Origin: Candidatus Magasanikiibacteriota bacterium
GTDB taxonomy: Bacteria; Patescibacteriota; Patescibacteriia; Magasanikbacterales; UBA922
Direction of reading: 5' to 3'
NCBI GenBank assembly: GCA_003510435.1
Contig: DOMK01000020.1
Coordinates: forward strand, 59,523-123,522
DNA: 64,000 nt
In this document: in pieces, positions 3,951 through 58,200 of the stretch
How positions within the stretch are numbered: the first letter of the stretch is position 1
How the letters are laid out: each line of letters starts with the position of its first letter
Made by a program: the position numbers and the translations under genes
Notes under the pieces: model-generated
The model's database searches: none
What the model saw: only the letters and a program-made list of their open reading frames with translations
Told to the model about the DNA's origin: nothing

Positions 3951-6062
3951 ATGATTGATTTTCAAAAAGAATTAAATTCAGAACAACTCAAAGTAGTACA
4001 AGACGGCAACGGCCCATGTTTAGTTTTGGCTGGAGCAGGAAGCGGAAAAACTAGAACAATTACTTATCGCGTGGCTTATTTATTAGAACAGGGTATAAAG
4101 TCAGAAAATATTTTACTAGTAACATTTACTAATAAAGCGGCGAGAGAGATGTTGGAAAGAGTGGAAAAATTAACAAGCAACCCACCCTCTGATCCCTCCC
4201 TTATAAAGGGAGGGAGGACTGTGTTACCGTGGGCGGGAACGTTTCACCATATTGGTTATAGATTATTAAAAAAGTACGCCACTTTAATTGGCCTGCCTGC
4301 GCAGGCAGGCTATAAAAATAATTTTTCTGTATTAGACAGTGAAGATAGTTTGGATTTAATTAAACTTTGTCTGAAAAGCGAAGGGATTGATCGGAAAGAA
4401 AAAAGATTTCCTTCTCCAGCCGTAGTCCAGGCAATTATTTCTTATGCCCGAAATTCTGAGACTACGATTGCTGATGTTTTGGATTTGAAGTATGAACATT
4501 TTTTATATATCAGTGAAATAATTGTCAGGATTGCTGAAGATTATCAAAAAAGAAAATTGGCGGCCAATGTTATGGATTTTGATGATTTGCTCGTGAATTG
4601 GTATATGTTACTTATTAAGGAACAAGGAGTAAGGAATAAGTTAAGTGAACAATTTGAGTATATTTTAGTTGACGAATATCAAGACACAAATAAAATTCAA
4701 GCTTCAATAATTAATTTACTAGCTTCTAAGCATAATAATTTATTGGTCGTAGGTGATGATGCTCAGAGTATTTATTCTTTTCGGGCAGCTGATATTCAAA
4801 ATATTTTAGCGTTTGAAAAAAAATACAGTCAAGCAAAAATTTTTAAACTGGAAACCAATTATCGATCTACGCCAGATATTTTAAATTTGGCCAATGATAT
4901 TATTGCTAATAATTTAAAACAATATGAAAAGAATTTAAAAGCCATTAACACTAATTTTACCAAGCCAGAATTGATTGCCTTTGCTAGCCAAGCCGAAGAA
5001 GCTCAATTTATTGTTCAGAGAATCAAAGAATTGGAAAGTGAAGGAATAGACCTAAATAAAATTGCCGTGTTATTTCGCGCGGCTTATCATTCCCAGGCTT
5101 TGGAAATGGAATTGGTGAAGCGAGGGATTGATTATGATTATCGCGGGGGAGTAAGATTTTTTGATCGGGCCCATGTCAAAGATGTTCTAGCCTATTTGCG
5201 GATTATAAATAATATTGCCGACGAGATAGCTTGGCGTCGAGTGCTTAATATGCAGATTGGAATTGGGCCAGCGAATGCGGATAAAATAATTGAAGGGATA
5301 CGAAATACGAAAAATTACGAAATTACGAACTACGAAAATATTTTTGATGGGATTGGCGCGCAATTGCCAGCCAAAGCGCAGGTGGGGTGGAATGATTTTT
5401 TACAAATCTATTCCGCCGTCGCTAAAGCTATGGCGGATAAAGAAAATATAGGAGATTTGATTTTATCACTATTGGATTCAAAATATGTAGAATATATAGA
5501 AAATGAATATCCAGATTATCGTGAACGTTTGGAAGATATAAAACAATTAGCACAATTTGCGAAAAATGAAACAGAGCTGGATAAATTTTTGGCTGAAGCT
5601 ACACTACAAGATAGTTTTAGGAATCCCGCACTTCAAATCAACTCCACATTAGAAAGTAGAAGGGGGAAGTTAATTTTATCTACGATTCATCAAGCAAAAG
5701 GACTTGAATGGGAAGCAGTGTTTGTATTGGGTTTGTCGGCCGGACAATTTCCGAATGATAGAGCTTTGCGTGAGCGTGATGGTGTAGAAGAAGAAAGGCG
5801 TTTGTTTTATGTAGCAGTCACTCGCGCTAAAAAATATTTATATCTTACATATTCATTTGGTGGTGGGTGGGGAGATTCTTTGGCTGGACCAAGTATGTTT
5901 ATTGATGAACTTAATAAAAAATTAGTGTCAGCTGAAGGTATGGGTGGTGGAAGTGTATTTGAAGATTTAGATAACGAAGCAGAATATATTGATGAAGATT
6001 CTCAAATTATAGATAGTAAAAAGTTTCCTGGGAGTTTTTTGAAAGATTTGGGTGAACTGTAA
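3951..6062 (+). CDS. uvrD: ATP-dependent DNA helicase, UvrD/PcrA family
   Basis: It has the Walker A motif 'GAGSGKT' and 'VDEYQDTN' (motif II). The C-terminal 'TIHQAKGLEW...YVAVTRA' completes the helicase motifs. Confidence 0.92.
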   Translation: MIDFQKELNSEQLKVVQDGNGPCLVLAGAGSGKTRTITYRVAYLLEQGIKSENILLVTFTNKAAREMLERVEKLTSNPPSDPSLIKGGRTVLPWAGTFHHIGYRLLKKYATLIGLPAQAGYKNNFSVLDSEDSLDLIKLCLKSEGIDRKEKRFPSPAVVQAIISYARNSETTIADVLDLKYEHFLYISEIIVRIAEDYQKRKLAANVMDFDDLLVNWYMLLIKEQGVRNKLSEQFEYILVDEYQDTNKIQASIINLLASKHNNLLVVGDDAQSIYSFRAADIQNILAFEKKYSQAKIFKLETNYRSTPDILNLANDIIANNLKQYEKNLKAINTNFTKPELIAFASQAEEAQFIVQRIKELESEGIDLNKIAVLFRAAYHSQALEMELVKRGIDYDYRGGVRFFDRAHVKDVLAYLRIINNIADEIAWRRVLNMQIGIGPANADKIIEGIRNTKNYEITNYENIFDGIGAQLPAKAQVGWNDFLQIYSAVAKAMADKENIGDLILSLLDSKYVEYIENEYPDYRERLEDIKQLAQFAKNETELDKFLAEATLQDSFRNPALQINSTLESRRGKLILSTIHQAKGLEWEAVFVLGLSAGQFPNDRALRERDGVEEERRLFYVAVTRAKKYLYLTYSFGGGWGDSLAGPSMFIDELNKKLVSAEGMGGGSVFEDLDNEAEYIDEDSQIIDSKKFPGSFLKDLGEL

Positions 6063-9361: not shown

Positions 9362-9484
9362 CATGTCGGCTGTCGTTAATGGAGAACTCAGGGCGCACGT
9401 GGACATGCTCGCGGCACAGAACGAGGGACTGCGGTTTCTCATGAGCCAGTTTCACTGGCTGACCGCGTTCGAGCTCTGGCTCGC
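9362..9484 (+). CDS. GC-rich 40-aa ORF with a strong Shine-Dalgarno site (candidate foreign small gene)
   Basis: AGGAGG lies 6 nt upstream of the ATG. It encodes 'MSAVVNGELRAHVDMLAAQNEGLRFLMSQFHWLTAFELWLADR', and the codon third positions are GC-rich, unlike the host. Confidence 0.3.
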
Positions 9485-9611
9485 CGACCGGTGAGTCAGA
9501 AGCAGCGCGAGCTGCACGTGCGGGAGGGCTTCGCTACCCAACCCACGTATTATTTATTTTATAAAAAGTAAATAGTACGTGTGTGGGATGTTATCTTTGG
9601 AGGGAAAATGA

Positions 9612-9800: not shown

Positions 9801-9931
9801 CGACAGCCAAGGGACGGCGGGAATACAGACTTGTGGTCTTTCCCGCCGTCCCAGATGAAAACAAAACCGCCAAGAACTTGAGAGAAAAAAATATTGTTCT
9901 TTCAAGGAGGTAATGGCGGTTTTGTTTTAAA

Positions 9932-9960: not shown

Positions 9961-9966
9961 TATATT

Positions 9967-10145
9967 TGATCCTGATAGCTGTGGCAGTTCATATCATATC
10001 CGCAAATATTCATACTTGGGAGATCTATATTTCTCCAGCCTGTGGGCTAGAGGTGCGATCACCCACCTGATTTTCAGGGGTATGGATATGTCCTGCCTCG
10101 GGCTGATGGATCCAAAAAGACAATCTTAAACAGGTTGTTTTTTTA
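9967..10145 (+). ncRNA. candidate small RNA (about 180 nt) between the orphan promoter and a T-run
   Basis: A consensus promoter lies upstream. The segment is mixed-GC with several short hairpins (gtggg...cccac, cctga ttt tcagg) and ends in gttgttttttt. Confidence 0.3.
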
Positions 10146-10618: not shown

Positions 10619-11266
10619 ATGATACCTAACACTGTTGAAGAGCAGACAGAGGAACAAGAAAAAATTGAATCCTTACCAGAAAAAGAAGAAGTGGTAAGCG
10701 AAGTAGAAAAAGGTTTTTTGGCCAAGACTAGCCTTTTCTTTTTGGAATTAATCAAGATTGTTATTTTGGCGGCGATTACGATTGGCCTGGTACGTTATTT
10801 TTTGTTCAAACCATTTTATGTAAAAGGTCAATCAATGGAACCAAATTTTTATGAAAGTGATTACCTTATTATAGATGAATTATCTTATCGTTTTCGTGAA
10901 CCCGAGCGGGGGGAGGTTGTGGTTTTTCGCGCTCCGGTTGATAAAAAAGAATTTTATCTAAAACGAATCTTAGGTTTACCAGGAGAGAGAGTGAAAGTTG
11001 GTGAGGGAAAAGTGGTTGTTTATAATGATAATTACCCACAAGGAATTTTGGTAGAAGAAAATTATTTAACCGAAACTACGCCTGGTTCTACTATTACTAC
11101 TCTTGGTTCTGATCAATATTTTGTCATGGGTGACAATCGTGATGCTAGCTATGATTCTCGTCGGTTTGGACCAATTGAAAAAACAGATTTTGTTGGTCGA
11201 GCTTGGGTAAGAGGTTGGCCATTTAGTCGCTTGAGTGCGTTTGAAGTCCCAAAATATAATTTTTAA
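10619..11266 (+). CDS. lepB: signal peptidase I
   Basis: It has 'GQSMEPNF' (catalytic Ser), 'LKRILGLPGE' and 'YFVMGDNRDASYDSR' (GDNR box). Confidence 0.9.
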   Translation: MIPNTVEEQTEEQEKIESLPEKEEVVSEVEKGFLAKTSLFFLELIKIVILAAITIGLVRYFLFKPFYVKGQSMEPNFYESDYLIIDELSYRFREPERGEVVVFRAPVDKKEFYLKRILGLPGERVKVGEGKVVVYNDNYPQGILVEENYLTETTPGSTITTLGSDQYFVMGDNRDASYDSRRFGPIEKTDFVGRAWVRGWPFSRLSAFEVPKYNF

Positions 11267-11423
11267 TATTAATCACTAATTTTGACTCGCCCAGGGTAGG
11301 GAGAAATCCCTTTTCTAAGCAACACAAGATGCTTATATAATACACAAACTTTAATGTTAATCACATTGATTTTAAAAGGGATCCCTCTCCGCCCTGGGCG
11401 GATCGGGATTAACAAAAAAATTT

Positions 11424-12881
11424 ATGCCAACAAAAAATAAAAAAACTTTTAATAAGAAAAGTCCAGACAAAAAGATTAAAAAGAAAAATGTAGAAAAGAA
11501 AGTAGTGGCGCCAAAAAAGATTGAAAATAGAACAGAAAATCATGCTGAAGAAAAAAATAATGATGAAGTAGTGGAAGGTATTAAAACCGGTAAAGGTAAA
11601 GTCTTATCTCTGCTCAGAGGTTTTAAAGATATTTTGCCAAAAGAAGATAATTTTTGGAAAGTCATTCGTCATTCAGCAGAAAATTTGGCTGATGCTTACA
11701 ATTACAAATGGATTGAAACCCCAATATTAGAAGAAGCAAGCTTGTTCATCAGATCAATTGGTAAGGGGACAGACGTGGTGGATAAAGAAATGTATGTATT
11801 TGAAGATGCTGATGGTGATAAAATTTGTCTTCGTCCAGAGAGCACTGCTTCAATAGCCCGTGCTTATGTTTTACACGGGATGCATACCATGCCTCAGCCA
11901 GTAAAAGTTTGGTATTTGGGACCAATGTTTCGTCATGATCGACCACAGGCTGGACGATATAGAGAGTTTCATCAATTTGGTTGTGAAAGTTTGGGAGTAA
12001 AAGATCCAGTCGTGGATGCCGAATTGATTGCGGTGGCGTATTATTTTTTGAAAGATTTGAATATTAATTCGATTGTTTATATTAATAGTATTGGTACTGT
12101 AGCTGATAGACAAAATTATATTGTAGAATTAGTTGGTTATTTACGAGCCAAGAGAAGTTATTTGTGTGAGGAATGTAAAAAAAGAATAAACAAAAATCCT
12201 TTACGAGTTTTGGATTGTAAAAATCCAGATTGCAAAACTATTTTGGAAGAGGTACCTCAGATTATTGATTGGCTAAGTGATGAATCGAGAAATTTTTTCA
12301 TGAAAGTTTTGGAATATTTGGATGATCTTAATATTCCATATGAATTGAAACCAACTTTGGTGCGTGGATTGGATTATTATACTGATACCGTTTTTGAACT
12401 TTACAAAGAAAATGGTGAAGAAGGAGCCCAAAGTGCTCTTGGTGGTGGTGGTAGATATGATGGTTTGGTGGCAGAGTTAGGTAGCAAAGAAATTGTTCCG
12501 GGCTGTGGTTTTTCTTTAGGCCTTGAAAGAGTGGTAAATGTTTTGAAAGAACAACAACAAGCCAGTGGCACAGAATATCAAGAAACCAATAAATTTTTCT
12601 TTGCTCAATTGGGTGAGCAGGCAAGACGTAAGACCTTGAAAGTATTAGAAGAATTACGTTTGAATGGAATAATTGTAAAACACAATTTGGCCAAATCAGC
12701 CTTAAAGGCACAGTTGGAATTGGCTAATAAATATAAAGCCGATTACACCTTGATTTTGGGTCAAAAAGAAGTTCAAGATGGTACAATTATTATTCGGGAT
12801 ATGGAGTCTGGTATTCAGGAAATTATTGATCAAAAAAAATTGGTACCAGCTCTAAAAAAGAAATTGGAGAAAATGAACTAG
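11424..12881 (+). CDS. hisS: histidine--tRNA ligase with a Lys-rich N-terminal extension of about 55 aa
   Basis: Class II aaRS motifs are present ('LRPESTASIARAY', 'FRHDRPQAGRYREFHQ', 'GGGRYDGL'). The N-terminus is K-rich. Confidence 0.9.
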   Translation: MPTKNKKTFNKKSPDKKIKKKNVEKKVVAPKKIENRTENHAEEKNNDEVVEGIKTGKGKVLSLLRGFKDILPKEDNFWKVIRHSAENLADAYNYKWIETPILEEASLFIRSIGKGTDVVDKEMYVFEDADGDKICLRPESTASIARAYVLHGMHTMPQPVKVWYLGPMFRHDRPQAGRYREFHQFGCESLGVKDPVVDAELIAVAYYFLKDLNINSIVYINSIGTVADRQNYIVELVGYLRAKRSYLCEECKKRINKNPLRVLDCKNPDCKTILEEVPQIIDWLSDESRNFFMKVLEYLDDLNIPYELKPTLVRGLDYYTDTVFELYKENGEEGAQSALGGGGRYDGLVAELGSKEIVPGCGFSLGLERVVNVLKEQQQASGTEYQETNKFFFAQLGEQARRKTLKVLEELRLNGIIVKHNLAKSALKAQLELANKYKADYTLILGQKEVQDGTIIIRDMESGIQEIIDQKKLVPALKKKLEKMN

Positions 12882-15907: not shown

Positions 15908-18900
15908 ATGTTTAATTTTAAGAAAAAATTAATTTTTATATTATTTTCTCTAATTATAGTGATGGGTACTTTTGTTTTTGTTTCCAATGTTTTTGCCCAA
16001 TCAGCTGATGTTTTTGGTTTGAAGCCGGTAGGTGATTCGATTGCCCTCGGTGGACAGGATATAAGAATAACAATTGCAAAGATAATAAGAGTGATTCTAG
16101 GTTTATTGGGTATAATCGCCATGGGAATTGTTTTGTATGGCGGTTTTGTATATATGACATCTGGTGGTAATGAAGAAAAGGTTGCTCAGGCAAAAAAAAT
16201 TATTATTAATGGCATAATTGGCTTAGCGATTATTCTTTCAGCCTTTTCTATTGCGAGTTTTATTATTAATAGTTTGGCTGGGGCAACTATAAATAAAAAT
16301 CCTCCTAATGACAACTTGTCGTGTTTGGATTCTACTTATCGTGAGGAACATCCTGCTAAGTGTGATAAATGTATTAAATGGCCACAGACATGTTGTGAAG
16401 AGTATTTTATTGTCAAAAGTATTACACCTGTCACAAATGCCACCAACATGAATAATGTGGTGATTAGGGTTTTGTTTAGCAAAAAATTGAGTAGTGACTA
16501 TACGAGTAATACAAAGTTACGTGAAGTCGTTCAGGTGTTTGGTTCATCAGGAACTAATATTACTAATAAATTTGATTTTGTTTTAAAAGATGGCTTGTTG
16601 GTAGAATTGACACCAAATAATAATTCTGGTCTGAAATGTGAAGGTACGACTAATTGTTTAGCTGATGGCAATTACACTATAAAAGTAAATGAAAATACCA
16701 AATCTATAAATAATGAACCTCTTACTACGGATGTGGAATTTTGTGGTGAGTATCCTTTGGAAGGAAAATTTATTACTAATCACGAAACTAAGGGTTTTTA
16801 TTTTGATGGGGTAAATGATTATATTGAAGTGACTAGTACAGACATGAATATTACGACGGGTGATTTTACTGTGGCAGTTTGGGCAAAATCAGTTAAGTTT
16901 ATACAAAGATCCTCAATAATTAATAAAGGAGCATATTTTCCAGAAAAAAATATTGGTTATAATATTGGTTTTATAAGTAATCCCAAAAATGTTTGGTTTG
17001 TAGTGAGTGACGGTCCAGCCTCTAGTCCGGCTAACACTCTATCTAGAACATATGATACTTCTACGAGTAGTCGAAGTGGAGTTTTTGATTGGGCACATTT
17101 TGTTCTAGTTAAAACTGGTAATCAAATAAAAGCTTACACAAATGGCGTTTTGGTTGGTACAGCTGGTGGGGTAGATAGTTCAATTTCAAATGTATCTAAT
17201 TTTTTAATTGGGAAAAGTATTGTTAGTAATAAATTTTTTAATGGTTATATTGATGATGTTTATTTTTATAGAAGAGCTTTGAATGATACAGAAATAACTA
17301 GTCTTTTTCAAAAAAATGCTAGTATCCCTAGAGATACAGCTTTGGTAGGTGAATGGAAGTTTGATAATGTCGTGGGTAATAAAGTAATAGATAGTTCTGG
17401 TAGAAATAACAATGCCGTAGTCTATGGCGCGACTTGGGTAGAGGGTACCTCAGGTGGCACATCAGCCCAGACGACTTATAATTTAGGTTTTGATGGAATA
17501 GATGATTATATAGAAGTGTCAGATAATAGTGTTTTAGATTTGACAGATGCCATCTCGGTTTCTACTTGGGTAAAATCTCGTGCTGAAGGGTATATCGTGG
17601 CCAAGGATCCCTATGTGTGGCAGACAGTGGCAAACAATTATATTCCTTTTATGGGGCCTTGGAATTGGGTACAAAATGAAATGCAAGGTACCAGATTTAC
17701 TCCAAAAAAAGATGGTACTGTTGATAAATTATGCAAATATTCAAAGGGCAACCAGACTTTAAAATTGTGGGATAGTTCATTTAATGAATTAGCTTCAGTC
17801 CAATCTTTAAATACTGTTGATGAGTGGAAATGTGAGACAATAACTTCACCTGTTTTAGTTCAAGCAAATAAACTTTATTATGTAGGCATTTGTTGTAATG
17901 ATGGTATCAATTGTATTCGTAGGGCAGAGTCTGGTAATGTGGTTTACCCACTATTAGTTGGAGATGTTGAAATGGGGCGGTCGTTTTCTGTTTCTAATAA
18001 TTCTGGCTGTGCCCTGTCTGGTTTACCAGGGACTTCAGCTAATGCTTTTTTTGTAGATATTAATTTTGTGCCAAGTGGTAGTACACCAGTGGCAGAAATT
18101 TGTAATGATAATCTTGATAATGATGGCGATGGTAAGCTTGACTGTTCAGATCCAGATTGTGTTGGTAATTCGGCCTGTCAAACTACAAAAACCAATGTGC
18201 CCTTTGCCCTTAGTACAATTGGTAAAGGACAATTTTTAATTAAAAAAGATGGGGTAGACCATGTGGTAAATTCCTCAGTAAATATAAATGATAATTTATG
18301 GCATCATGTGGTGGCTACTTATAGTAAGAGCGGTAGCGGTGAAATGAAAATTTATGTGGATGGAAATTTGACTGGCACGGCGACTGGTTATACTGGTGGT
18401 ATGCCCACAAACAATGACCCATTATTTATTGGTCGATCTTATGATCCAGCCCAAACGACAAATTATTTTAAAGGTAATATCCAAGATCTAAAAATTTACA
18501 ATCGAGCCTTGTCTTTGTCTGAGGTTGGTCAACTTTTTAATAAACAAACAGTTCCAACCGGTTTGATTTCCAGTTGGGACTTTAATCTTGGTAGTGGCAC
18601 CAGTCTTTCTGATAATGAAAGAAGAAATATTGGTACATTTAAAGGTGGGGTACAGTGGTCATCAGTGACAATTCCGGCTTCTGGCCCAAGTTCTAATGTT
18701 GGGGTCAAAGATTCTCAATCACCAGAAGTTAGTAGTTTAGCTGTAGACAACCTTATTACTACTAGTACTTATCGTTTGCGAGGGGGCAAGGATTATGATC
18801 TTACTACCCAGATTGCTGATGAAAGTGGTTTTGGTTATTTGCATATAGAAGTAGAAAAAACTAAAGATCATGAAGGCAAAATTGTTTCTCCAGCGCAAAA

Positions 18901-21900
18901 AATGATGGCCACTGATTATTATTATGGTCCGTCAGTAGCTCAGGGTTCAAATGCGCCATTTTCTGCACCATACCAATTTAGTCATCCTTTAAATTTTAAA
19001 AATAGTAGTACCACTATTTATACAGCTGGTCTTTATACTGTAAGAGTAACGGTTTATGATATTGATAATAATAGAACTATAAAGACATTAATAGTTAGTT
19101 TAATTCCAGAAAGTTGTACCAATGGTCAATTGGATCCAGGTGAAGTGACTTCTGATGAGGGTGGAGTATGTGGTCGTGGAGAAGGTGAAAGTTGTGATAC
19201 AGATAATGATTGTAGTTATAGTCTTAGATGTATTGATCACTTGGGTGATGGAAATAAAGTCTGTACAGCTTATCCAATGATAGAAGGAGTTAGTCCAATG
19301 ATGTCTGGAGCTGGCGGTAATTGGATCACTGTCTATGGTAAGCATTTTGGTGAAGAATCGGGTAATATTCAATTTGCGGTTGGTAATCACCCTACTACTT
19401 CTACGGGAAGCTGGGCAAATGCCAATTTGGCGGATTGTGAACAAGATGTGTGGCATGATAAGTGGGTGATTGTGCAGGTGCCAGAAGATAATACTACTTT
19501 ACCTCTATATAGTACTAGTACAATTAAATTGCAAACCACCTCAACTATTCAAGTTGGTGGTGTGTATATAAAACCTTATGATACAACGGTAGATGATTGG
19601 GGATTGGACAGTGGCCAACCTGGTTTATTTACAAAAAATACTGAAGTTTATCCTGGTTTGTGTAGTGTTGGTATAATCAATCCAATTATTGACCCAGAGA
19701 CAGAACTAGTTGTTGTAGAAGCTGGTGAAAATCGTGGTTTGCCTGGAGATGAAATTGAGGCGATTGGGCAAAATCTTGGTGATGATAGAAATGGGGGAAA
19801 ATTATTATTTGGTGGCGACAATGTAAATACCCAAGTTTCAGATTGGAATGATACTAACATTTTAAGCGTAGTGCCAGAATTAACAGCCGAGTGGTATGGA
19901 GTTTATGCTCAGATGGGTTCAACTGGAGGATCGAAAAAAAGTAATGCAGTGCCGTTTCATGTTTTGGATGAGGGCTTTTTGCGAGCACCAATTATAGAAA
20001 GTATTGATCCACCAACAACTACACCAGGCAGTTATATTACAATTTATGGTAAAAGATTTGGTAAACAAGTTGGTCAATATAAAGGCCGGGTATTTTTGTC
20101 AGTCTCTAAAACAGAAGCCAAAAATTGTTTGGATGGTACACCAGAGGTAGATAAATGTTTAGAATTATCTGATGCTGGTTTTCCACAAGAATGCAGTGAG
20201 ACTTGGTTTAATGATCACGTAATTGTTGGCATTCCAAAAATTATTCCCCAGATATTTAGAGATAATTATCAAAATACTTTATTGACTCAAGGTGAAGTGG
20301 CAACTGATCTTTTGTCTTCGGCTGGTTTGGGTAGTGAACATATAGTTAATTCGTATCATAATTATGTAAAAATAAATGATTCTGAAACGTTTTTATTAAT
20401 GGGTAGAAGTTTAGAAGTTGATGTTGTTTTGGATGATTTAGCGACAAGTACAGGTCAATTTTCTAAAAATTCAACACAATGGAAAAAAAATAGGTATGTG
20501 TTGATCAAATCACCTACTAGTACTGATACGTATGCTGATTTTAAAATGAGAATAGAACACACAGTGGACGTGGCAGATGGTGCTGTAAAAAGAACATTGT
20601 ATGTTGAAAGTGATACCGTAAGAGTTTATAGCATGATTCAACCTAATTATTCAGTGTCTTTTCCTCTTCAAAATGATGTAAAAAGATTTAAATTTAAAAT
20701 AAAACCAGGTTATGATGGTGCTGATAAAAAACTTTTTAGTTATTTATCCACCTCCACTGATCCAAATGTGGAACCGGGTACCCCTTCTTTAGCTAATACT
20801 AGTGATAGATTATTTACAGCATTGGTTAGTAGTACCAAACCATTATTTTTAGGTTACAATACTGTCATTGGTTCCAATAATGTCTATACTTTATTTGGTA
20901 TAATAAAAAGTTTAAAAATAAATAATGATGCTTTGGTGGATGATCCCAATGCTTATTTCCGTCCCTACATTATATTAGAGAGCAGTGCCGAAGAACCTCT
21001 AAATACTTCTGGCAATGATCAATATACCATTATTAATGGTGATCCAGCACCAGGGATTTGTCTTATTAGTCCAGCTAGTGGCCCAGCCCCTTTGCCTGTC
21101 GGAGAATTTTTAACACTCTATGGTAATAATTTTCCTTTAGATCCTTTTGTTTATTTTAGAGGTCCAAATTCTGATCCAAATAATGTTAGTAGTACTGGTG
21201 GTTGGTTGGAAGCAGAAGACGTTAGTTTAATTCCTTTGGCTGGTGGTGGACAGATGATAACCACTACTATTCCTTATAGTGAAACTATTTTATTAGGTGA
21301 AGGTCCACACACTGTAAAAGTTAAGAAAAATACTACCCCAATTGCTGTAAGTAATGGTTTGGATTATTTGGTGATAGATTGTACCAAAGCTAGTAAAGAA
21401 GAATCCACTAGAATGGAATCTCGTTATCAATGTTGTACAGCTGGTAAAGATCTTGGTAAATGGAAATTGGATAGTAGTGTTTGCGATGGTCAAGTACGCG
21501 AGGCTGGCTATGTATGGCGGTTTACGACTGGTATTATAAAATTACCTCCTTATGTAGTAGAACAGTGTGATCAAGAACATTGGAATGATCCAGGTGTGAC
21601 TTTGAAATTTCCTTCGCCAGTGCCATGGATAGGTTGGAAGAGTGGAGACTCAGTTTGTCTCAATGCCTCAGTGGCAGTTTATTTTAGCCGGTCAATGGAT
21701 GAAAATACTATAAATTCTAGTACAGTAAAAATGTACAAGTGTACGGCCACAGAAGACAATACGACTGGTTGTACAACTGCAATTCCTCTGGAAGATGATG
21801 AAATTATTCTTAGTTCACAAGTTTTGTATATTAGACAAAATCCACCTTCTAGTGATTTAACTTCTAGCACCTGGTATCAAGTTAAATTGTCCAAGGACAT

Positions 21901-24900
21901 TACTTCTTATGAAGAACAACAGCAAGTTGGAACAACCACTATAATAAGAGAACTATTAAAACCAACCGAACCTTGTGATAACGGTGATTATGCTTATTGT
22001 TATTATTTCAAAACTGGTACTGGTCAGTGTAATTTAGAGGGTGTCTATATCAATCCTTTGTATCATAGAGCGCGGTTGCTTGGAATTGTCCAAAGTCCTT
22101 TCTTCCCCTATATAATGACTTTGGAAGGTATAAATAATCCACCTCATCCTTATTATTATTTATTATGGGGCAAGGCTAATCAGCCGTGTACTATCATAAA
22201 TGTGGATGGTTTGGGTTGGGTTTGGGATTCTATAGATGATACCAAAGCTGTGTCAATAAATGCACCAAAGTCAGGTCAATACACAGACAGTAGAGCTAAA
22301 ATTAGAGCTTTACAAAATACTGCTCCAGGCACAGTTGATATTACAGCTGAAGCTACAACTACAGTGACAATTGATATTGATGGACAGACTGTGACAAGTA
22401 CAGAACACTTTTTGGCCTCTACAACTTTAAAGGTAGATTTGTATGATCCACAAGTGATTGAATGGTGGCCAGATTGTATTAATTCTTGTGCCAACGGTAC
22501 TGTTGGGGTACGGTTTAATATGCCGATGGTGACTAATACTTATCCTGGTGGTTTAATTTTAGAAAAATGTAGTGATGAATTTTGTGATACGATTGTTAAT
22601 AGTATTCCGGTGACGACCACAATCGCCAGTATAGAGATTTATGAAGTAGCACCAATAAATAATTTATTACCAAATACCTGGTATCGGGTGACGGTGACAG
22701 GGACTATTTTTTCTATTGGCAGAATTGACGCCAGTGGTAATGTGTTAGCCAATGGTGATCCTTTGATTCCGCATGTTTGGCGGTTTAGAACAAAGATGGT
22801 TGATGAAATTTGTATTTTGGACAAAGCTAGTTTATATCCAGATCCTTTTGTGGCGCATTTTATAGATGAAAAAACTATATATAATGTTATGCCGATTAGT
22901 GCACCAAACCAGTGCAATCCAAATGGACAAAAATTAAATCCTTGGAATTATGGTTGGCAATGGGACGTGGTGGCAACTTCAACCTTAACTTCAAATTACG
23001 ACGTGGCTACCTCAACTCATTTTGAAGAAGCCGGTACTTTTAAACCTTATTGTGATTTTGCTTGTTTATTGGCTGGTAGTAATTATCGCGACGATGTTCG
23101 TCAGCCATTTATTTGTGGCAATGGTGTTATAGAGCCAGGTGAAGATTGTGATATTGCCACTACGACCACATCGACTGATTCCAATCCTGCCCAGGTTCAT
23201 GAAATTGCTGGACAGAGTTGTAATTTGTCTTGTCTGCGTCCAGGTAATCCTGATATTGGTACTGGCACAAATCAATGTGGCAATGGTACTACAGAATATA
23301 TTTATGGCGAAGAATGCGATACAGCCAAACCAAGTGAAATAAATTATTGTAAGCCAAATTGTACTTGGGAAGGCTCAAGTCAATTGGTACAAAATCGGTC
23401 TAACTTGGTATCCCAGTGTGGTAGTGGTAGTGTGACCAAGGGTGAAGATTGTGATTTGGGTATTACTAGTACTACCATCCCAGAAGGAAAAATTGGTTGC
23501 TCAGACAAATGTCTTCACACCGGTACAATTTTGTCACAAATGTGGTGTGATGTTAGTACCAATACTATGCAGGTGGGGACTACCACTCGGTCAATAAATG
23601 AAATTGGCGAATGTAATCATGCGGCCAGTATTTGTGGTAATAGTGTTTTGGAATCAGGTGAAGAGTGTGAATTTGTTTATAATAGTAATGTTTGGCAACA
23701 AGAAAGAATTAAAATTTTTGGTGAGGCGGGTGATTTCCAAATTGTGACCAGTACAGTCGTGACATCAACCAAGAATATTTGTTCAAATAAATGTTTATTA
23801 GAAAATATTTGTGGACAGAATTATATTGACTTGAACACCGCCTTTACTACGAGTTCTTTCCGTTGTGCTTATCCGGGTGAAGGTTGTAGAAATGATTGTC
23901 ATATTCGTGGAGCGTCTGTGGCTTATACCTTACCTTCTATGTGTGGAGACACTGTAGATGGCGTAGGTGAATATCCAATGTGTGAGTTAAGGACTTCTAC
24001 AGCTTTGGGACAAAAGCCTTTACAAATAGTGACTGCGATTGGTGAAGGAGCAGTTGATCCAGAAACCAATTCACAAAATGCGCGGATCAAAGCTACAGCG
24101 ATAAATTATAAGAATAGTGATGGGAGTGTAGAAACTTTAATTATTCCAGTTGACGGCTTTGGTACTTATGGTTTGTATTGTGGTTATACAGAATATACTA
24201 CGGCCGATGCTAATGGTAATTATAATGATTGTCCAGGTGATAGTGTCATGGTTGGGGCTGGTTCTGATATGTGTTGTCGACCACGTCTGTATCGTCAAGA
24301 AGCTTACCCAGCCGATGGGACTGGCCTGCTTGGTGCTAGTGAAGAAGGGGTTTGTCGCAATACTTATATTGAGGCCAAATTTAGGGGTGAGATTGATCCA
24401 GATACTATTGAGAATAATGCCTACATCGTTAGTGGTCATGCTAGCGGGCACACTTGTTTGTCTACAGAAATTCTTTTTTCTAATCAAATTACTTCTACTT
24501 TGTTGGCTTATGAACCAGGTGAACAAATACCAGGTGGTTTTTGGTCCAAATTGTGGTATCACATAAAAACTTTCTTTGTTCGTTTATTTGCTGGCAATGT
24601 TTATGCTAGTCTTTTTACTGTATCAGATCCAGTTTGGTGTGCTTCTCCATTAAAATACCAAACAAATTATGAATATAATCAAGTGGGTGATGCCAAAGCT
24701 TCTACTACCACTATTTCTTTTTATATAAATAATTTACTTGAACCAGAAACTAATTATGTTGTATTTTTACGTGGAGGAGCCGAAGGCATAAAGGACACTA
24801 ATGGAGTTGGTATTAGAGGAGCGGATGATATTGATTCTGGGGCTGGTACTCTATATCAATTAAAAGATTCTTGGTTATTCAAAACTAACACTGAAATTTG

Positions 24901-27900
24901 TACGATTGATAATTTGTTAGTTTTGCCTAGTGACTATTTATTCCAAACACCAAATACTACTAGTACTTTTCATGTTTTGGCTTTGACTGATACCTTACAA
25001 AAAATAGTCCCAACAAATGAATATAATTGGGAATGGGTTTGGGGTCCACAAAATAATGAACTATTTTCTATTCCAGCGGTGGGCTATCCAGGTGATTCAG
25101 ACTATGCAGTTTTGGCTTCCACCAATTTGGAAGGTCATGTTTATGCTGTAGTGCAGGCTGAGATAGAAGATCTTACTAGACAAGCACCAGTTGATGGATT
25201 AGATCCATTACCAGTGGATCCAGATTTTGGTACGCAAAATCATACGACAGCTTATTTCAATCTTACCTCTAGTTTTTGTGAAAATCCTTGGCCACCAGTG
25301 GTTGGTGGTGTTTGGACACCTTTTGAAGATTCAGATTATAATTTTAGTTTCAATTATTGTGCTGATGCTGGTTTGACTGATAATACAACTGATGATTTGC
25401 CATATTTAGATGTGGTAGAAATGGAAAACAAAGTGTGTAATGGTAGTAATATTAGTTGTAATACTGACGCTGATTGTCCAGGTTTATTATATACTGATCA
25501 AAATTGGAATGCGCGTTTTTATGCTGTACCAGATCCAGATAAGACTGGTTTTTGTGGTTTTGTCGTTCCTGTTTCTTCTCCAGATTCACAAATCTATATT
25601 GGTCAAACTGGACCAGTGGCTTGTGCTGGTGATGCTATGTGTAAAAGTAATAGTACTTTGGTGACTTGGGCTAATGCTAAAATTGTTAGCTTACCAGCAG
25701 GGTACAATCTTTCAGTAGCCAATCATTTGCTTTGTGCTGGTATAGCCAATTCTTCACCAGCCCAGTGTGTGGTAGATCCTAATAAAGAAGTATTAAAAAA
25801 ATATTTATTTGTCGCTGATAAAAATGATGATGCGATCGGTCTCCAGATTTTACGCAATCCAGATAGATTGTCGGCTTTGAATTGGTTTAGAGACAAATTT
25901 AAACTAGCCACTACCAATCCACAAGTCATAGAGCTAAATGGTTATGATGCGATTACTGATGGAGAAAATTATTATGTCAATGCTTTGAATGCTGATACAG
26001 CCAATCATCATGTTTATAATAATATTTATCAGATTAGTTTGAACAAAGGCATGCAAGCCAATACTAAAAATGTTTTTGATCAGATTTTTAATAATTTTAA
26101 ATTTAATGCTAATTTATTAGATGTTCGCATGTGTGGTTATGCTGATGGGTCAATTGATTTGAGTCGAAATACAAAATGTAGTAGTGATCTGGATTGTTAT
26201 AATGCTGTAAATGTTGGTCATTGTGGAATAGGTAGTGGCGACTGGAATGGAGTGAATTTTGTTGGTAGCAATTTAAATAGTCTTTCTGTTTTATCAGATA
26301 ATGAACTCTGGGTTTCTGATTATAATGGCAAACTGTATTATACTAATAATGGTGGAAATACTTGGATAAATGAGGCTACTTCAACAGCTATTTTATCTGG
26401 GAAATATTTTAAAAAGGTTGATTTTGTGGATAGTAGCCATGGTTGGGCAGTGGACAATAATGGAATTGTTTTTAAGAAAACCGTAGATACTTGGCAAAAT
26501 TTAGGTTCAGTGACTAGTACGTCTGGTTTTGAATATAGAGATGCATTTTTTATTAATACTAATAATGCTTGGGTGGTGGCTGGTAAATCTGGTAATGCTA
26601 AAAGTAGAGTGTTTAAAACTTTAGATGGTGGTAGTGTTTGGCAAGAAGAACCTGTGTATTATTATCATTCCAATGGTGTAACTTTGCTGGACGCAACCAC
26701 CTTTGGGCCTAGTAAAATATTCTTCACCCCAGATAGTCAAGGGTGGGGTATTGGTTCGAGAATGGCCGGATCTGGTACTGATGTTTATGGTATAATTTTT
26801 AAGAGAGATAATGATCAAAATCGTTGGTTGGTAGTTTCTACAACCAACTACCTAGCTCTTGTAAACCAATTTAATGACATATATTTTGCCAATGACAGTA
26901 TTGGCTTTATAGTAGGTAATAATGGTTTGGTTTTAAAAACAACTGATGCTGGTAATAACTGGCTAGATATTAGCACTAGTAGTTTTAGTGATATTAATTT
27001 AACAGCAGTTCATTTTTATGATGCCAATAAAGGTGTAATGGTTGGTAATAAGACTGGTGATACAAAAGGTTATGTTTTAAAAACTCTAGATGGCGGAGCG
27101 ACTTGGGAAAAATATCATTTACCAGTCAATACTGGTGAAATGAGGGATGCCTTTATTAATAGCAGTACCAGCATGACTGTTTTAGGTGCTAATTATATTT
27201 TAAACAATGACACGGAAGAACGAATTTGTCGAAGTGATAGTGATTGCTTCAATGGCAATACTTGTTATGGTTATGAAGAAAAATTTTGCGTGGCACCAAA
27301 AGCCAAATTATTAAACGATTGGACTAGAGTACGCGATGTGGCTGACATTCAAAAAGGGATTGAAGCTTATAATTTTGTCAAAGGCTATTATCCAGATCTG
27401 AAAAAAATTCATACGTCACCATCAGATCCAAATGAAGCGCAATTTTCTTCGTATTTGCCTGGCTATGTGACCTCACGCTGGTCATCTTGGGGTGCTTTTG
27501 GTTCTAAGGTGCTTGGTTTGTCTGGGATTGCCTCTGATCCATTAAATATTTGGCAAAATTGTCCAGCGAATTTTGAACAGACTACTTGTTGGGATGAAAC
27601 TAATCTTAGTTATTATTGTGCCTATCCGTCCAGTGTTTATGAATATAAGTTTGTGTCAACTAGTCCCGGTTATTCTCTCAATATTCCCTTTGAATATCTG
27701 ACAGTTGTTGATAATGGTGAAGACGGAGATATTCTGGGTGATATGTTGCCAAATACCTCTACCATTCAGACTAATCGGGCTTGTACACCAGGCCAGATAG
27801 AGAGTCTGCTTGGTGATCATTGTGGAGATGGTATGGTCACTCCTAGCAACAATGAACAGTGTGATCCAGTTGGGTCTCTTGGTGCTTTGGTTGTTAGTAG

Positions 27901-30900
27901 CACCCACAATCGTTATTCTGCACGACAAAAATGCAATTTACAGTGCCAATGGGAATTAGGAGAGTGGGCTGTGGGTGATGTGTGTGGTAATGGTGATACA
28001 GAAGGTAATGAGGCTTGTGATGATGGAGATAAAAATGGTACCTATGGTATGTGTGCTGGCCCAAATAGTAGATATAAAACTAATATTGTGGATGCAAATG
28101 GTAATGTTATCCATACTATTAATAGTCTAGTCGGAGAGTGTCAGGGTTTACACCAAGAATATTGTGGTGATAATGTTTTACAAAGTCAGGAATTGTGTGA
28201 AAAGAAAGATGATGTACTGGTATCTTACAGTTTAAATTTGGGGACATGTGGCAAAGACGCTAGTAGGAGTTGTTCTTTAGATGATCAATGTTTTAGTGCT
28301 TTGTCTTTTGATGGTAATAACGATTCGCTGTCTTCAGAACAAGACATTCCGCTTGGTAATGGTCCATTTACTATGGAATTTTGGTTTAAACAAAGTGAAG
28401 TTTTGAGAACAGATTCAGAGCCGATTGTAGCTTTTCATAGAGGTAATAGTCCAGAAGATCCTGATAATATGAAGGCTTATTTTGCTCTAGAAATTGGTAG
28501 AAATAAAAATATTGGTTTTGGGCAAGCTGGTTTTATGAATAGAACTGGTAAATATTCTTATGTAAAGACTAATGATAATGTTTTTTATTTAAACAATTGG
28601 TTTCATATTGCTTTAATGAGTGATGGAACTGGTAAAGTTAGTATTTTTGTTAATGGAGTAGAATTGGCTTCAGTAAGTAATTTTGTCACTAGCGATAATT
28701 TGGCAGTAGATAAAATATATATTGGCAATCCACCTTATTTTTTACAATATGGTTTGACCGGAGTAGTGGATGAATTTAAAATTCATAATCAAGTGATAGA
28801 TCCTGCTCTTTTTAGAACTTATTATGATAATACAGATCTTATTAGTGAGTATCTCGATTCAGCGGTTGGCTGGCATCTTGATGAAGGTATGGGTAGTGAT
28901 ATTTATAATTATAAAAATAGTACTTTTGACGCTTCAATAAGTGGGGCAAAATGGGTGACGCCAGATATTTTTACTGATACTTGTGGTAATATTTCAAAAA
29001 AATATACTTATTTGCGTTATGGCGACCAGTGGAGAGGTGTGGCTGTTTCAGCCACTCAATGCAGTAGTGGCAGTCCGGCTGTAAAAGCTATTTGTAAAAT
29101 TCTTAGAACGGCAATTCATCTTGGTGTAACATCTTTGGTAAATGGCGGTGATTATAAAGATAATTATTGTAGTAATAGTCTAGATAATTTGGTTTTGTGT
29201 AAACAAAGTAGTGATTGTGTTGTGCCGACCACCACTGCATATATATTTACAGAAAATGAATTTTTGAATAGTGATTTGACTGGTATGATGACGTCTTTTA
29301 CCAATGCCACTACCTCTCTGGGCACTTGTGCTCCTTTCCCAACCGGAAAGAAATATGGCGCACCATATAATTTTTATAAAGATTTATCTTGCGCTTGGAA
29401 CTGTCAAAACTATGGTTCATACTGTGGTGATGGTATGAGAGATGCTGGCTATGGTGAGGAGTGTGATGATACCAATACTGTAAATGATGATGGTTGCAAT
29501 ATTTATTGTAAAACACAAGGTACTGTTCCACCTACCACTACTATTGTTACGGAGCCAGAGTCTGATTTGACTTGTGGAAATAATATAAAAGATAAAGGCG
29601 AAGAATGTGACGAGGGGGTTAATAATGGTATTGAATGTAGTATTTCTTATGGCAAGGGTTGTACTTATTGTGCATCTGATTGTAAAAAGAAAATTGTTAA
29701 AGATCCAATTAATTTTTGTGGTAATGGACAGATTGATTTAATAGGTTATGACAAGACTGCTAATGAACCAATATATGAAGCTTGTGATGTAAAAAATGGT
29801 GTTGTCCAGACTAGTAGTAGTGGCCATATTGTAGATGCTTATTGTTACAATTCACAAATGCCTGGCAAAAATAAATTTTTCGCTGGTAGTTTTAGTTGTG
29901 AAAGTAGTTGTACCAAGTTAGTAGATAAGTGTTTTGATTGTGGGGCATTTAATAGAAAATTAGAGGACAATGGTACTGCTGTGCCTAGATTTGACATTTT
30001 TAGTGTTTTGACACCGACTACGACTGCTAAAATTACTTTTAATAATCACACTGATGATAGAAAATTGAAGTTTGGTTATTTTGTCCCTGGTACCAATGTG
30101 TCTAGTAATGGTACCTCTACTCTAAATTATTCTCATGATTTAGATGTTAGTTCTACCAATCCTATTAGTTTGGGAGATGTTAATATAGAAACCAATCCAA
30201 TTTGTAATAATTATTCTAATCCTACGCCACTAGCCACCAGTTCTTATTATTGGTTTGAAGGTGATAATACTTATTCAAGTGCTGCAAATTTTGCACTTAT
30301 TCCTAATAATCGTTTATTCTATTACCCAGTTAATAATGAAGCTGATATAGTAAAAAATCAGTATATAGTAGCACCTAATCCACCCGAAGGTAGTTTCCGG
30401 GTGGTGGTGAAGTGGTCTGATAAATATGTTCCAGATACGGAAGTCAAATTTCAAGGTATAGTTTATAATTCAGGTTTGGACGAAAAGCAGACTATAAACT
30501 ATGTGGATGCCAATTTATCAACAAGTAAAGATTTGGCTGATATTACTGGTAGCGCTAATAGGGTGTGTAATAGTAATAATTATGAAGTAGATTGTATTGG
30601 TAAACAATATGATGGGGTCTATGTTCATGGGCAGGGTGATTTTAATGGTACTCATGTTCAGTCATTCACCATTGATACCTATGCTCGCGGTTTTGATACC
30701 AAGAATTATGCTTTTGTAGTTGACCAGTGGGGTAAAGTAAAACGTATTTCAGGTCAGACAGATTCTAGCCCAATTTCGCCATATATGAATAGTGATTTGA
30801 CAGTAGAAGTCTATGAACACAAGAGCGATGGTGGCAATATTTATCATCCCGATCATACGTATACAATCAAGAATGAAACCACTGCTGATCCTAAGGCTGA

Positions 30901-41313: not shown

Positions 41314-41357
41314 CACGAATCACGAAACACACAACACGAGACAAAACCCCACCCCAA

Positions 41358-41389
41358 CCCCTCCCCTTAAAAATGGGAGGGGCTTTTTA
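41358..41389 (+). terminator. rho-independent terminator after the ABC exporter
   Basis: A C-rich/G-rich 8-bp stem (ccccTcccc...ggggAgggg) is followed by cttttt. Confidence 0.6.
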
Positions 41390-41491
41390 ATTTAAGAGTA
41401 AAATGTTATAATATTTATATTATTCTTTATTCCCCGCCTGCAACGCTATCGCTTGCATTGCGGGCAGGCTTACTCCTTATTCCTTTTTATT

Positions 41492-55230: not shown

Positions 55231-58200
55231 ATGTCTGAAGAAGACAAAAAACGTGGTAAAGTTAGAAGAGATGGTAAGGTAATAGATGTTAAACCAACTC
55301 CGGGTGGTGATTTTGAATTATCTGCAGATAGAGAATCTGAGCTGCGAGTTGAATTGGAAAAATTGAAAAATGATCTGAAAGATAGAATCCCTGATATTGA
55401 CAGTGAAATATTAAAATTGCATGGTTCGTTAAATAGAGTAAAAACAGAAAAAAGTTTGGACTTATTTACTCAATTTAGTACTGCATTAAATGTATTAAGA
55501 CAGGAATTACGAAAGTTAGAACAAGAAATTTATGCAAATGAAATGATTGCAACTTATGAAAAAGATATTATTGCTTTGGATAAGAAATTAAAAAAACTAG
55601 CTAAACAAGTTGGCGTTAGTGCTTCTGAACTCATACTCAAATTAGCCAATACTAGTATTTCAGAACTAAAAAATGCTTTATTTCAAGTCGGTGATAAACC
55701 CGATGATCCTGATGTTGCAGGCCAGTTTGATGCCCTGCTTAGAAAAGCCAAAGAGTCAGTAAATGAAGCTATAAAGAAACAAAAGGAAAAAGGTGAATGG
55801 AAAGTAAATACTGATGAAGAAGTGAAAGCTATTTGGGAACAAGCTGAAACTAGAGATGCAAAGCAGGTTATAGCTTTGATCGGAGAAACTCAACAAACTT
55901 TGGAGAGAAATAAAAAAGACGGCGAAGGCAGACTAAATGGTGCAGAAAAAATTTCTGATATACAAGAAACCGTCATGACTCATGACGGTGATTTGGTTTA
56001 TCTACCAGAAAAAGGTCATGCCATTATTGTGGGTGACACCCATGGAGATGAAAGTTCTATTCAATCAATCTTAGTGGAAACAGATTTTATTGCGCGCGTA
56101 GAAAGACATGAACCAGTGTATTTAGTCTTTACTGGGGACTATGTTGATCGCGGGCCAAAGCAATTGGAAAATATTCAAGCGTTAATGGAATTGTATAATG
56201 AATATCCTGAGAATGTAATTTTGTTAAGAGGGAATCATGAACATGCTGGCTCACCTCAAATGCAAGATCCGGATTTATTTAATATAAAGGCCATGGATGC
56301 CTATGGCACTTTTGCAACAGAAATTAGAGATAAATACAACGAATTTTATGATAATTTGCCAATTAATTTAGTGACAAAGAAAGGCTTGTTGATCACCCAC
56401 GGCGGGATAGCAGAAGATCCTGAAGTAAAAAGAGCCGGAGATTTGACGAGATTAAGTAATGACCAGAAAATGCAAATGATGTGGACAGATCCAACAGAAA
56501 TTTCTGATGATTTTGTTTACATTCCCAAAAATAAAGATGGTGAGACAAAAAGTAGAGGTAGTTATGGTCAAGGCGATGATGAGAAAAAAGTTAAAAAATT
56601 TGGTAAAGGTGTTTTTGAAAAATCTTTACAAGCTGTTGGTGCCAAGGCTATGATGCGTTCACATCAGGCTGACGATAGTTTTAAAGATAATGGTTTTAAA
56701 AGACAATTTGGTGACAAATTAGTGACAGTATTTTCTACTACATCTGGACAGCGTGGTTACAAACCAGCCTATATGGAGGTAGATTTGAGTGCAGAATTAA
56801 CAGATTTTTCTACAGCTGATACGGCAGTGAACGGTCCAGTGCAACTAAGAAATGTTGGTGATACTAGACCACATTTGTTAAAAGATGAAGATTTGATAGA
56901 GTTGGAAGAAAGTGATGGAGTTTTGGGTGAAGATGACGAACCTCCAATAGTTAATACTCCACCAACTGAAGATGATCCAAAAAAATGGTGGAGATGGTTG
57001 TCTTTACATTATCATGTGGCTAAAACAAATAGTCATGAATTAAATTCAGCCATAAATACTTGTGGTGATAAAAATTTGGCTGGATTGAAAAGAATTTACG
57101 AAATAATTTTGGCTTGTGGAGACGATTTTGCCGAAGCTGGCAGACAAGCTTTGGAGTTTGCGCACAGCCTGCCTAAACCAGGTGTAGGTGAGAGTGGTGC
57201 AGATTCTTCTGATCATTTATCAGAGGATGACCAAAGTAAGTGGCAAGAAATAAAAGCTGTAAGTGGAGATGTAAAAATTGTAGATTGTTTACGCTTGTTT
57301 TCTAGTATAGAAAAAACTTATAAATTATTTACTTTATTTAAAAAAGATGGAAAAAGATTTTCTGATTTTGTGATCCAATGGGATAATCTTCCAGATCGTT
57401 CAGATATTAGTTTGGTAGTTGAAATGCTAGACAGTCATACAAAAAATCCTAAACTTTATTATGATGATCCTGATTCTAGATTAGAGATAGATGTTAGTAA
57501 TTTACAAGAGATGTTTGGTTCAATGGTTTTGTTTACTGAGTTTGCCCCGAGTGATTTGGACAGTCGGAAGAGATTTTGTGAAGAAATACCAAAAAAAGTA
57601 AATGATCTATATGAAAAAATATTTAGTCAGGCAGTAATTGATATACACGAAGTTGATTATGGTGTTCATGCTGTATCCGATCCAGCAGGAAATCTTAGAG
57701 TAAAAAATCAAGTCTTGCAAGAATTGAGTGCTGACATACTAAAAATTGATATAATTACTATTACATTTTTACATCAATTTCTTCTTCAGATGAATGAAAA
57801 GATTGGAAAAAATATTCAAGATGAGGGTGTTTATTATATGGAGGCAAACAAAAGAATTGAAGAGATTTTTAAAGATAAACGAGCAGATTTAGAGAAACTG
57901 AGGAAAAAAGTTGGAGGTGAGGAAGATGAAGCTGAAGCAAGATTGACAAAGCGAAAAGCTGAACTAGCCACGGCTTTGGGGGTGAGTTTCCCTAATCCAG
58001 CTGAAGTAAAACTTTTAGAAGATTTTCCTGATGATCGGGTTGATATTTTGGCACTGTTTTCTAAGGCTCTGGAAAGAGATTATACACAAATAAGAGCCTG
58101 GACAGAATTAAAAAATCATGAAAAGGTGAAAGATTTTTTTGCCTTAGGACAACTTATAGAAATCACTAAGGTTTGTGATGTTACCGCTGGTACAGCCCAT

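Follow-up and report, generated by a model that had tools for sequence, protein, structure and literature searches.

The genes lepB and hisS lie on the same strand in the 64-kb stretch of Magasanikbacteria DNA analyzed here (the window), and the gap of 157 nt between them holds a strong inverted repeat (Table 1). An imperfect palindrome had been noted at this place, with arms at 11288–11314 and 11374–11400, and its coordinates and sequence stand as given: the arms form 22 Watson-Crick and 2 G·U pairs over 27 positions. A repeat search extends them to 46 nt (11277–11322 and 11366–11411), 72% complementary and with 43 nt between them. The G+C content is 45% and 60% in the two arms and 25% in the centre, compared with 35.6% for the window as a whole. 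The inverted repeat is real and lies beyond chance expectation: the RNA of the plus strand folds at −57 kcal/mol, against −26.9 ± 3.4 kcal/mol for shuffled sequences (z = −8.9, with none of 200 shuffles as good), and the corresponding z-scores are −7.0 for the RNA of the minus strand and −5.6 for the block folded as single-stranded DNA.

Table 1. Features of the lepB–hisS junction, in window coordinates
Feature	Position	Strand	Basis
lepB (signal peptidase I, Peptidase_S26)	10619..11266	+	ORF, translation, Pfam labels on orthologues; stop codon 8 nt before the left unit
Promoter-like site TTGAGT-18-TATAAT within the last lepB codons	11231..11260	+	10/12 matches, consensus match only
Left palindromic unit, decayed, sense to lepB and hisS	11275..11310	+	Model R1 match 11269–11316, 56.9 bits, E 2e-13
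AT-rich spacer, 67 nt, 25% G+C	11311..11377	.	TATAAT at 11336–11341 with TTCTAA 17 nt before it; two small hairpins
Right palindromic unit, pristine, antisense to hisS	11378..11413	-	Model R1 match 11372–11419, 67.9 bits, E 2e-16
Whole tail-to-tail dimer, folding as one long hairpin	11275..11413	.	Block missing from relatives
hisS (histidine--tRNA ligase)	11424..12881	+	100% identical to the so-named protein of Candidatus Magasanikbacteria

Each arm corresponds to a palindromic unit, and since both units turn their CCC-TTTT tails towards the spacer, the two form a tail-to-tail dimer. Their inverted orientation allows the block to form either two local hairpins or one long hairpin. The local hairpin of the right unit (11381–11409) has 13 pairs in a bipartite arrangement, ATCCC-TC-TCCGCC-CTG-GGCGGA-TC-GGGAT, and a predicted energy of −19.5/−19.9 kcal/mol, an intact unit folding at about −16 to −20 kcal/mol. 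In the left unit, whose CCC-TTTT tail faces the spacer, the outer stem ATTTT/GAAAT is still paired; folded by itself, however, this unit reaches only −9.7 kcal/mol (z = −0.8), no better than shuffled sequence. The original prediction had assigned each arm a small hairpin of its own. For the left arm, AGGGA-GAAA-TCCCT does exist, although it is this weak one, whereas the aggga/tccct pairing proposed for the right arm gives way to the hairpin described above, which runs past the arm as first drawn. Alternative folds are accordingly available, as had been expected, but the long hairpin dominates: it is about 28 kcal/mol more stable than both local hairpins summed (about −29 kcal/mol), and with energies so unequal the alternatives lack the balance needed for a switch.

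As predicted, a TATAAT is present in the AT-rich centre of the palindrome. The corresponding promoter candidate, TTCTAA-17-TATAAT, matches the consensus at 9 of 12 positions, with a −35 hexamer at 3/6, and falls below the threshold of the promoter scan; the idea of a palindrome enclosing the hisS promoter stays unproven. The TATAAT of the promoter-like site in the end of lepB coincides with Tyr-Asn codons that are conserved in the LepB of relatives; a transcript starting from this site, or read-through from lepB, would hold the whole element. At the nucleotide level the end codons of lepB (…TAT AAT TTT TAA, window 11252–11260) keep this TATAAT in most relatives (L001, L003, L063, L064, L067), 8–24 nt before the hisS start, and it may double as the −10 element of a hisS promoter. 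A scan for intrinsic terminators calls none at 11260–11420; the long hairpin is followed by UAACAAAAAAA, and the left unit by CCCUUUUCU, weakly terminator-like. No leader peptide was found before hisS, and a tRNA/tmRNA scan returned nothing at the site. Rfam, searched at the site with E ≤ 10 and over the whole window at gathering scores, gave at the site only two matches to miRNA hairpins, of a generic long-hairpin kind, on both strands.

The palindromic unit and its copies

The unit is about 36 nt long, with the consensus TGTC-ATCCC-GA-YCCGCC-CAG-GGCGGR-GA-GGGAT-CCC. When the left and right arms are compared in inverted register, 28 of 40 positions are identical and the 12 differences are all transitions; judged by this alignment, the arms are homologous and go back to a single unit. 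Their decay has been unequal, the right copy showing no difference from the consensus and the left copy 13, eight of which are GC→AT transitions. The 32-nt core of the right arm (minus strand, 11413 down to 11378) is 100% identical to copies at two loci elsewhere, L058 and L059.

To locate such copies the pattern of both arms was scanned over one genome per GTDB species and over JGI metagenomes. The 18-base arm pattern retrieved 53 loci from the genome collection, 50 of them chance matches in G+C-rich genomes that score nothing with the covariance model of the unit (R1), and four from the metagenomes (two new units, a duplicate of L020 and a chance match). A scan of viral contigs gave one chance match, and BLAST of the whole element against plasmids and phages gave no match. 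At loci unrelated to lepB–hisS, model R1 recognizes units in L020 and its duplicate L060, in L034 (two units, 1.2 kb apart), in L058 and L059, which are two contigs of one sample, and in L016. Taxonomic labels place L020 and L034 in the Patescibacteria and L016 in the Gammaproteobacteria, yet the ftsZ–nrdR gene order of L016 is as in the window. Four to five other genomes, most of them Patescibacteria, contain related units, and the family rests on seven non-redundant full units (two of them in the window) together with three weaker relatives.

The local density of units differs among these genomes, with two units in 8 kb in L034 and four related units in 14 kb in L059. In the genome under study, model R1 finds no further copy of the unit in approximately 82 kb (the 64-kb window and flanking contig sequence of 9.2 kb, L069, and 8.6 kb, L070), and a search for exact matches or matches with three mismatches finds no other copy of an arm in the window. 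Sequence resembling the spacer is found in no fetched locus other than L062, a JGI contig identical to the window. No transposase, Y1_Tnp included, is encoded by the 30 of 42 window ORFs that were scanned, and no gene annotated in L069 or L070 carries such a Pfam label. Given the lack of a further copy in these 82 kb and of a transposase in the 30 ORFs, mobility of the unit is something that we infer.

In the alignment of six units, 98.5% of the cells form standard pairs; shifting the 3′ partners by one, two or three columns lowers this value to at most 65%. Of the 11 pairs, three vary on both sides; for example, ATCCC/GGGAT is replaced by ATTCC/GGAAT (C-G to U-A, in the outer stem), and the pair at the base of the inner stem changes from U-A to C-G. 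L034 holds a further copy (model R1, 46.9 bits) with another compensated outer stem, ATTCT/AGAAT. This pattern suggests that the hairpin of the unit is conserved, as fits an element whose hairpin matters as DNA or RNA; with so few sequences the covariation is suggestive and no proof.

The units occupy recurrent positions relative to genes. The L016 unit, placed in sense, comes right behind the stop codon of ftsZ and precedes nrdR. In L059 a copy identical to the right unit lies antisense, 12 nt upstream of the start of an ABC-permease gene, with a near-consensus promoter, TTGTCA-17-TATAAT (11/12), upstream of it; its distance to the ATG matches that in the window, where the head of the right unit is 10–12 nt upstream of the hisS ATG. 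The same contig contains a second tail-to-tail dimer, whose two TGTC-AT units are related without being the same and which bridges the stop of one gene and the start of the next on that strand. In L058 (3547–3594, minus strand) the rpsB frame appears, by inspection, to run through the unit and to stop just beyond it. Such placement after stop codons in sense, or about 12 nt before start codons in antisense, is typical of REPs. The read-through in L058 would add ...MSSRSAQGGEGSRNN, followed by the stop, to ribosomal protein S2. Palindromes at L059 80–200, L059 12529–12550 and L020 4046–4111 belong to a wider superfamily of the form TGTC-AT...AT-C(C/T)C with other inner stems, for example GTCATCCTGAGCGAAGTCGAAGGATCTC, and one pair of them is a tail-to-tail heterodimer between two genes.

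Palindromes of other types were observed elsewhere in the window. An ORF for a UvrD/PcrA-type helicase (3951–6062) contains two in-frame, G+C-rich perfect palindromes at 4181–4224 and 4271–4314, CCCTCCCTTATAAAGGGAGGG and GGCCTGCCTGCGCAGGCAGGCT, which encode ...NPPSDPSLIKGGRTV... and ...LPAQAGY... and recall the REP/RPE insertions described in DNA-repair genes, including the UvrD/REP helicase (PMC3733652). Paired G+C-rich intergenic palindromes are present at gene junctions at 41341–41384 with 41427–41470 and at 63577–63620 with 63629–63672 (CCCCTCCCC...GGGAGGGG, CCGCCTGCAA...GCGGGCAGG, CCCCTTCTCTAC...GTAGAGAAGGGG and TTCCCCCTCTCTT...AGAGAGGGGGAA), and in L034 a similar CCCTCCCCTATAAGGGGAGGG adjoins the unit. 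The genome seems to host several families of palindromic elements. A possible 6S RNA (9966–10116, plus strand) precedes tRNA-Val, with a match to Rfam RF00013 of 38.9 bits (E 5e-6) that is below the gathering score of 46.4; it sits in a 1.3-kb ORF-free stretch between ndk and the tRNAs, where strong G+C-rich hairpins are also found at 9473–9516 and 9811–9854. The window also encodes two giant ORFs, at 15908–31735 (5275 aa; orthologue labelled T4SS_pilin, Big_5 and Laminin_G_3) and 55231–63171 (2646 aa; labelled Metallophos), both typical giant surface proteins of the CPR. The latter gene is followed by an unusually G+C-rich and strongly self-pairing stretch (63700–64000) that has no Rfam match at gathering score and within which 63935–63978 is 77% G+C and folds at −29.9 kcal/mol; in L069 a 322-aa gene is called from near the equivalent of window position 63928.

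The lepB–hisS junction in relatives

The lepB–hisS junctions of relatives were fetched using HisS homologues as anchors. The gap measures 24 nt in L001 and L002 (HisS 91% identical), 12 nt in the P0003 contig (80%), 8 nt in L064 and L065 (77%) and 13 nt in L067 (72%), and it is longer in L003 (75 nt; 82%) and L063 (96 nt; 81%), whereas L062 shares both the HisS sequence (100%) and the full gap of the window; L066 and L068 were left out of this comparison, their contigs ending about 100 nt upstream of hisS. The coding sequence on either side aligns well, as far as the lepB stop and again from the hisS start, and the window carries some 130–135 additional nucleotides. The covariance model finds no unit in the relatives' loci, the longer gaps of L003 and L063 included. 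Alignment of the regions upstream of hisS, which had been proposed as a check, accordingly finds that the pairing is not conserved and that the block is missing at the 8–24-nt gaps of five relatives (HisS 72–91%). With short gaps so frequent, the simplest reading is an insertion in the lineage of the window after its split from that of L001.

No target-site duplication is evident around the block, and the AT-rich flanks do not allow a clean insertion boundary to be defined. A long target duplication represented by a 26-nt direct repeat (11251–11276 and 11339–11364, 77% identical) was considered and dismissed, as about one such match is expected by chance, by our estimate, in AT-rich sequence as long as this.

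The junctions of some relatives have features of their own. TCCCGA stands directly after the lepB stop in both L003 and L063; it may be what is left of a unit, but the covariance model finds none at either locus. L063 (835–860) and L066 (55–90) have in common another G+C-rich motif, close before hisS, CCTCGTCRGYTTGYTG(C)GGGGAAA, that is not recognized by model R1. The lepB–hisS junction may have been colonized repeatedly, although model R1 sees no units in the motifs of L003, L063 and L066.

Origin and possible roles of the block

We consider it probable that, not long ago in the ancestry of this Magasanikbacteria genome, a REP-type unit dimer entered the lepB–hisS junction. The unit itself likely belongs to a family that is scattered at low copy over other genomes, mostly of Patescibacteria. 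The block probably senses neither histidine nor tRNA-His. Its arrival would have been by transposition or by a comparable copying process that works on hairpin DNA, and the unit probably spreads through copying that depends on its hairpin. As by-products at the RNA level, the left unit could serve as a 3′ hairpin for the lepB mRNA and the right unit as a 5′-UTR hairpin for hisS. Read-through from lepB would yield a transcript in which a 135-nt hairpin ends 12 nt before the hisS AUG; such a hairpin would be a possible substrate of RNase III, the gene for which is located 19 kb away on the same contig. Alternatively, the weak spacer promoter could give rise to a hisS mRNA with only the right-unit hairpin, as in L059. 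In relatives with junctions of 8–24 nt, lepB and hisS are presumably transcribed together. Arms that have decayed so unequally speak against one symmetric insertion with neutral drift afterwards; either the two units did not arrive together, or selection or conversion has kept the right one.

The place just ahead of an aminoacyl-tRNA synthetase gene, the existence of alternative folds and several CAC triplets in the spacer would all suit a leader specific to hisS, be it an attenuator or a riboswitch of T-box type, with the long and local hairpins as alternative states sensing tRNA-His or histidine. This regulatory reading, raised in the original prediction, does not survive the comparative data, which largely refute it: the block is missing at the orthologous site in all close relatives examined, and the unit is found beside unrelated genes elsewhere (rpsB/tsf, ftsZ/nrdR, an ABC permease). 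Rfam moreover offers no T-box or other cis-regulatory match at E ≤ 10, the fold energies are unbalanced in favour of the long hairpin by the margin given above, and the region has neither a U-tract terminator nor a leader peptide, so that we regard such a leader as highly improbable. It is no more credible that the block is an independent gene for a small hairpin RNA transcribed from the promoter-like site at 11231–11260. The closeness of that site and the very stable fold would agree with it; the absence of an Rfam family match, of conservation in relatives and of a terminator does not, and the repeat unit of which both arms are copies occurs on either strand relative to its neighbouring genes.

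The size of about 135 nt, the inverted arms at the ends and the presence or absence of the block among relatives are also what a classical MITE would display, meaning a non-autonomous element with terminal inverted repeats that was moved as one 135-nt piece by a DDE transposase from elsewhere. The earlier suggestion of a small MITE-like insertion is right insofar as the arms are inverted copies of a dispersed palindromic unit. The many identical copies by which a MITE was to be recognized were, however, not encountered within the 82 kb, the target-site duplication is not evident, no second copy of the whole element or of the spacer exists in any fetched locus, and none of the 30 ORFs scanned encodes a transposase. 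Where an arm does recur, it is as a free-standing single hairpin unit, which is the behaviour of a REP and not of a MITE terminal repeat; a classical MITE is, in our judgement, a distinctly unlikely identity for the block. Somewhat different is the possibility that the dimer, with the same origin, has been domesticated as a module retained for insulating lepB from hisS, with the left unit ending or stabilizing the lepB transcript, the spacer providing a promoter and the right unit being a selected 5′-UTR hairpin. The contrast between a pristine right and a decayed left unit, the TTCTAA-17-TATAAT of the spacer, the identical unit of L059 placed between a promoter and a start codon at the same spacing as here, and the layout of the second L059 dimer (stop, unit, spacer, unit, ATG) speak for such retention. 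Against it stand the poor −35 hexamer of the spacer (3/6, under the scan threshold), the lack of a called terminator-like site, the occurrence of the 5′-UTR arrangement in two examples only, and the fact that relatives manage with a junction of 8–24 nt; on balance we think domestication unlikely.

A bolder extension, which we put forward as doubtful, is that an undescribed Patescibacteria family of TGTC-tagged, bipartite-stem palindromes installs junction modules consisting of a sense cap, a promoter spacer and an antisense 5′-UTR hairpin about 12 nt before the start codon. Here such a module would split a lepB–hisS operon into two separately controlled transcripts, with the right unit under selection and the left one decaying. 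Should the constant distance to start codons and the promoter spacers prove general, such palindromes would offer bacteria that cannot yet be cultured or manipulated a source of regulatory rewiring. On the favoured reading, that of a REP-type dimer that entered the junction recently, a false lead is removed, there being no new histidine or tRNA-His riboswitch at this site, and the small, gene-dense genomes of the Candidate Phyla Radiation carry REP-type palindromes that insert at gene junctions and apparently also in reading frames.

Comparison with known palindromic repeats

Full-text searching of a literature library, both for the sequence of the unit and for REPs of the Candidate Phyla Radiation, brought up nothing relevant. 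Other identities were tried and rejected. The terminal heptamers do not, on inspection, fit the RYYYAAC/GTTRRRY of an integron attC site, and there is no cassette context; a GTAG-tagged REP is discounted because the GTAG of the left arm (11296–11299) results from two positions that are off the consensus and is absent in every other copy.

The block resembles the Correia elements of Neisseria, which are MITEs, in being a hairpin-forming insertion of ~100–155 bp at a gene junction. Correia elements can supply promoters, and their transcripts are cut by RNase III. They differ, however, in having defined 26-bp terminal repeats, a TA target duplication and hundreds of copies per genome, none of which is seen here. 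Over 13 nt the right end, GGATTAACAAAAA, resembles what we take to be the Correia terminal repeat, but the rest of the element is unlike Correia and this identity was rejected. With the BIMEs of E. coli the block shares two inverted palindromic units and a linker between genes of one operon, while the unit sequence is unrelated. Elements of the BIME class have effects at the RNA level, such as protection of mRNA 3′ ends, and the enterobacterial BIME families are high-copy and bind IHF and gyrase.

Similar in design, too, are the REPINs (Bertels & Rainey 2011, PMC3116915), in which two inverted REP-like sequences and a spacer form a block of ~100–140 nt that folds into a long hairpin and has been proposed as the mobile unit. 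REPINs, in contrast, occur in tens to hundreds of copies per genome with a single-copy RAYT and consist of GTAG-type REPs (PMC3116915), whereas the present block is found once in the 82 kb, has no RAYT in view, is non-GTAG and has very unequal arms.

The closest match is provided by the CGTC-tagged superfamily, one of the two REP superfamilies distinguished by Di Nocera, De Gregorio & Rocco (2013, PMC3733652), which includes Neisseria dRS3 and Rickettsia RPE-4 and RPE-6. In these elements the tag is often changed to TGTC and may also be CCTC, the stems almost invariably start with A-T pairs and the short unpaired tail has the consensus CCA; they occur singly or as head-to-head or tail-to-tail dimers with spacers of 20–100 bp, whose units fold apart or as one large stem-loop, and between genes of one direction they lie near where the upstream ORF ends, occasionally inside ORFs, without an associated transposase (PMC3733652). 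Our units share with them the A-T start of the stem, the dimer architecture, the placement and the lack of a known transposase, and they appear to share the type of tag (outside the window) and a CC-type tail. The tag is TGTC in L020, both L034 copies, L058 and L059 and GGTC in L016, the window copies having GTTA (right) and ACTA (left); the alignment columns that start the stem, 11/39 (A-U) and 12/38 (U-A), are invariant in all six units; and the tail is CCC in each of the six, with CTC or CCC in the related units of L059.

The published CGTC families have stems of 8–9 bp and loops of 4–5 nt and form mostly head-to-head dimers (PMC3733652), whereas our unit has a bipartite stem of 5 + 6 bp around a tandem GA/GA (13 pairs with GA) and a CAG loop of 3 nt, dimensions that give it no place in CGTC-1 to CGTC-4. 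The tail is CCC instead of CCA, the window tags are degenerate, the dimer is tail-to-tail and not head-to-head, and it is the only one in the 82 kb; the Patescibacteria lie outside the phyla surveyed. As a many-copy population and a cognate RAYT were not found in the 82 kb and 30 ORFs, we claim membership in no named family. The block is accordingly filed as a dimer of REP-type palindromic units, REPIN- and BIME-like in its build and nearest to the CGTC/TGTC REPs in stem start and placement, and apparently also in tag and tail.
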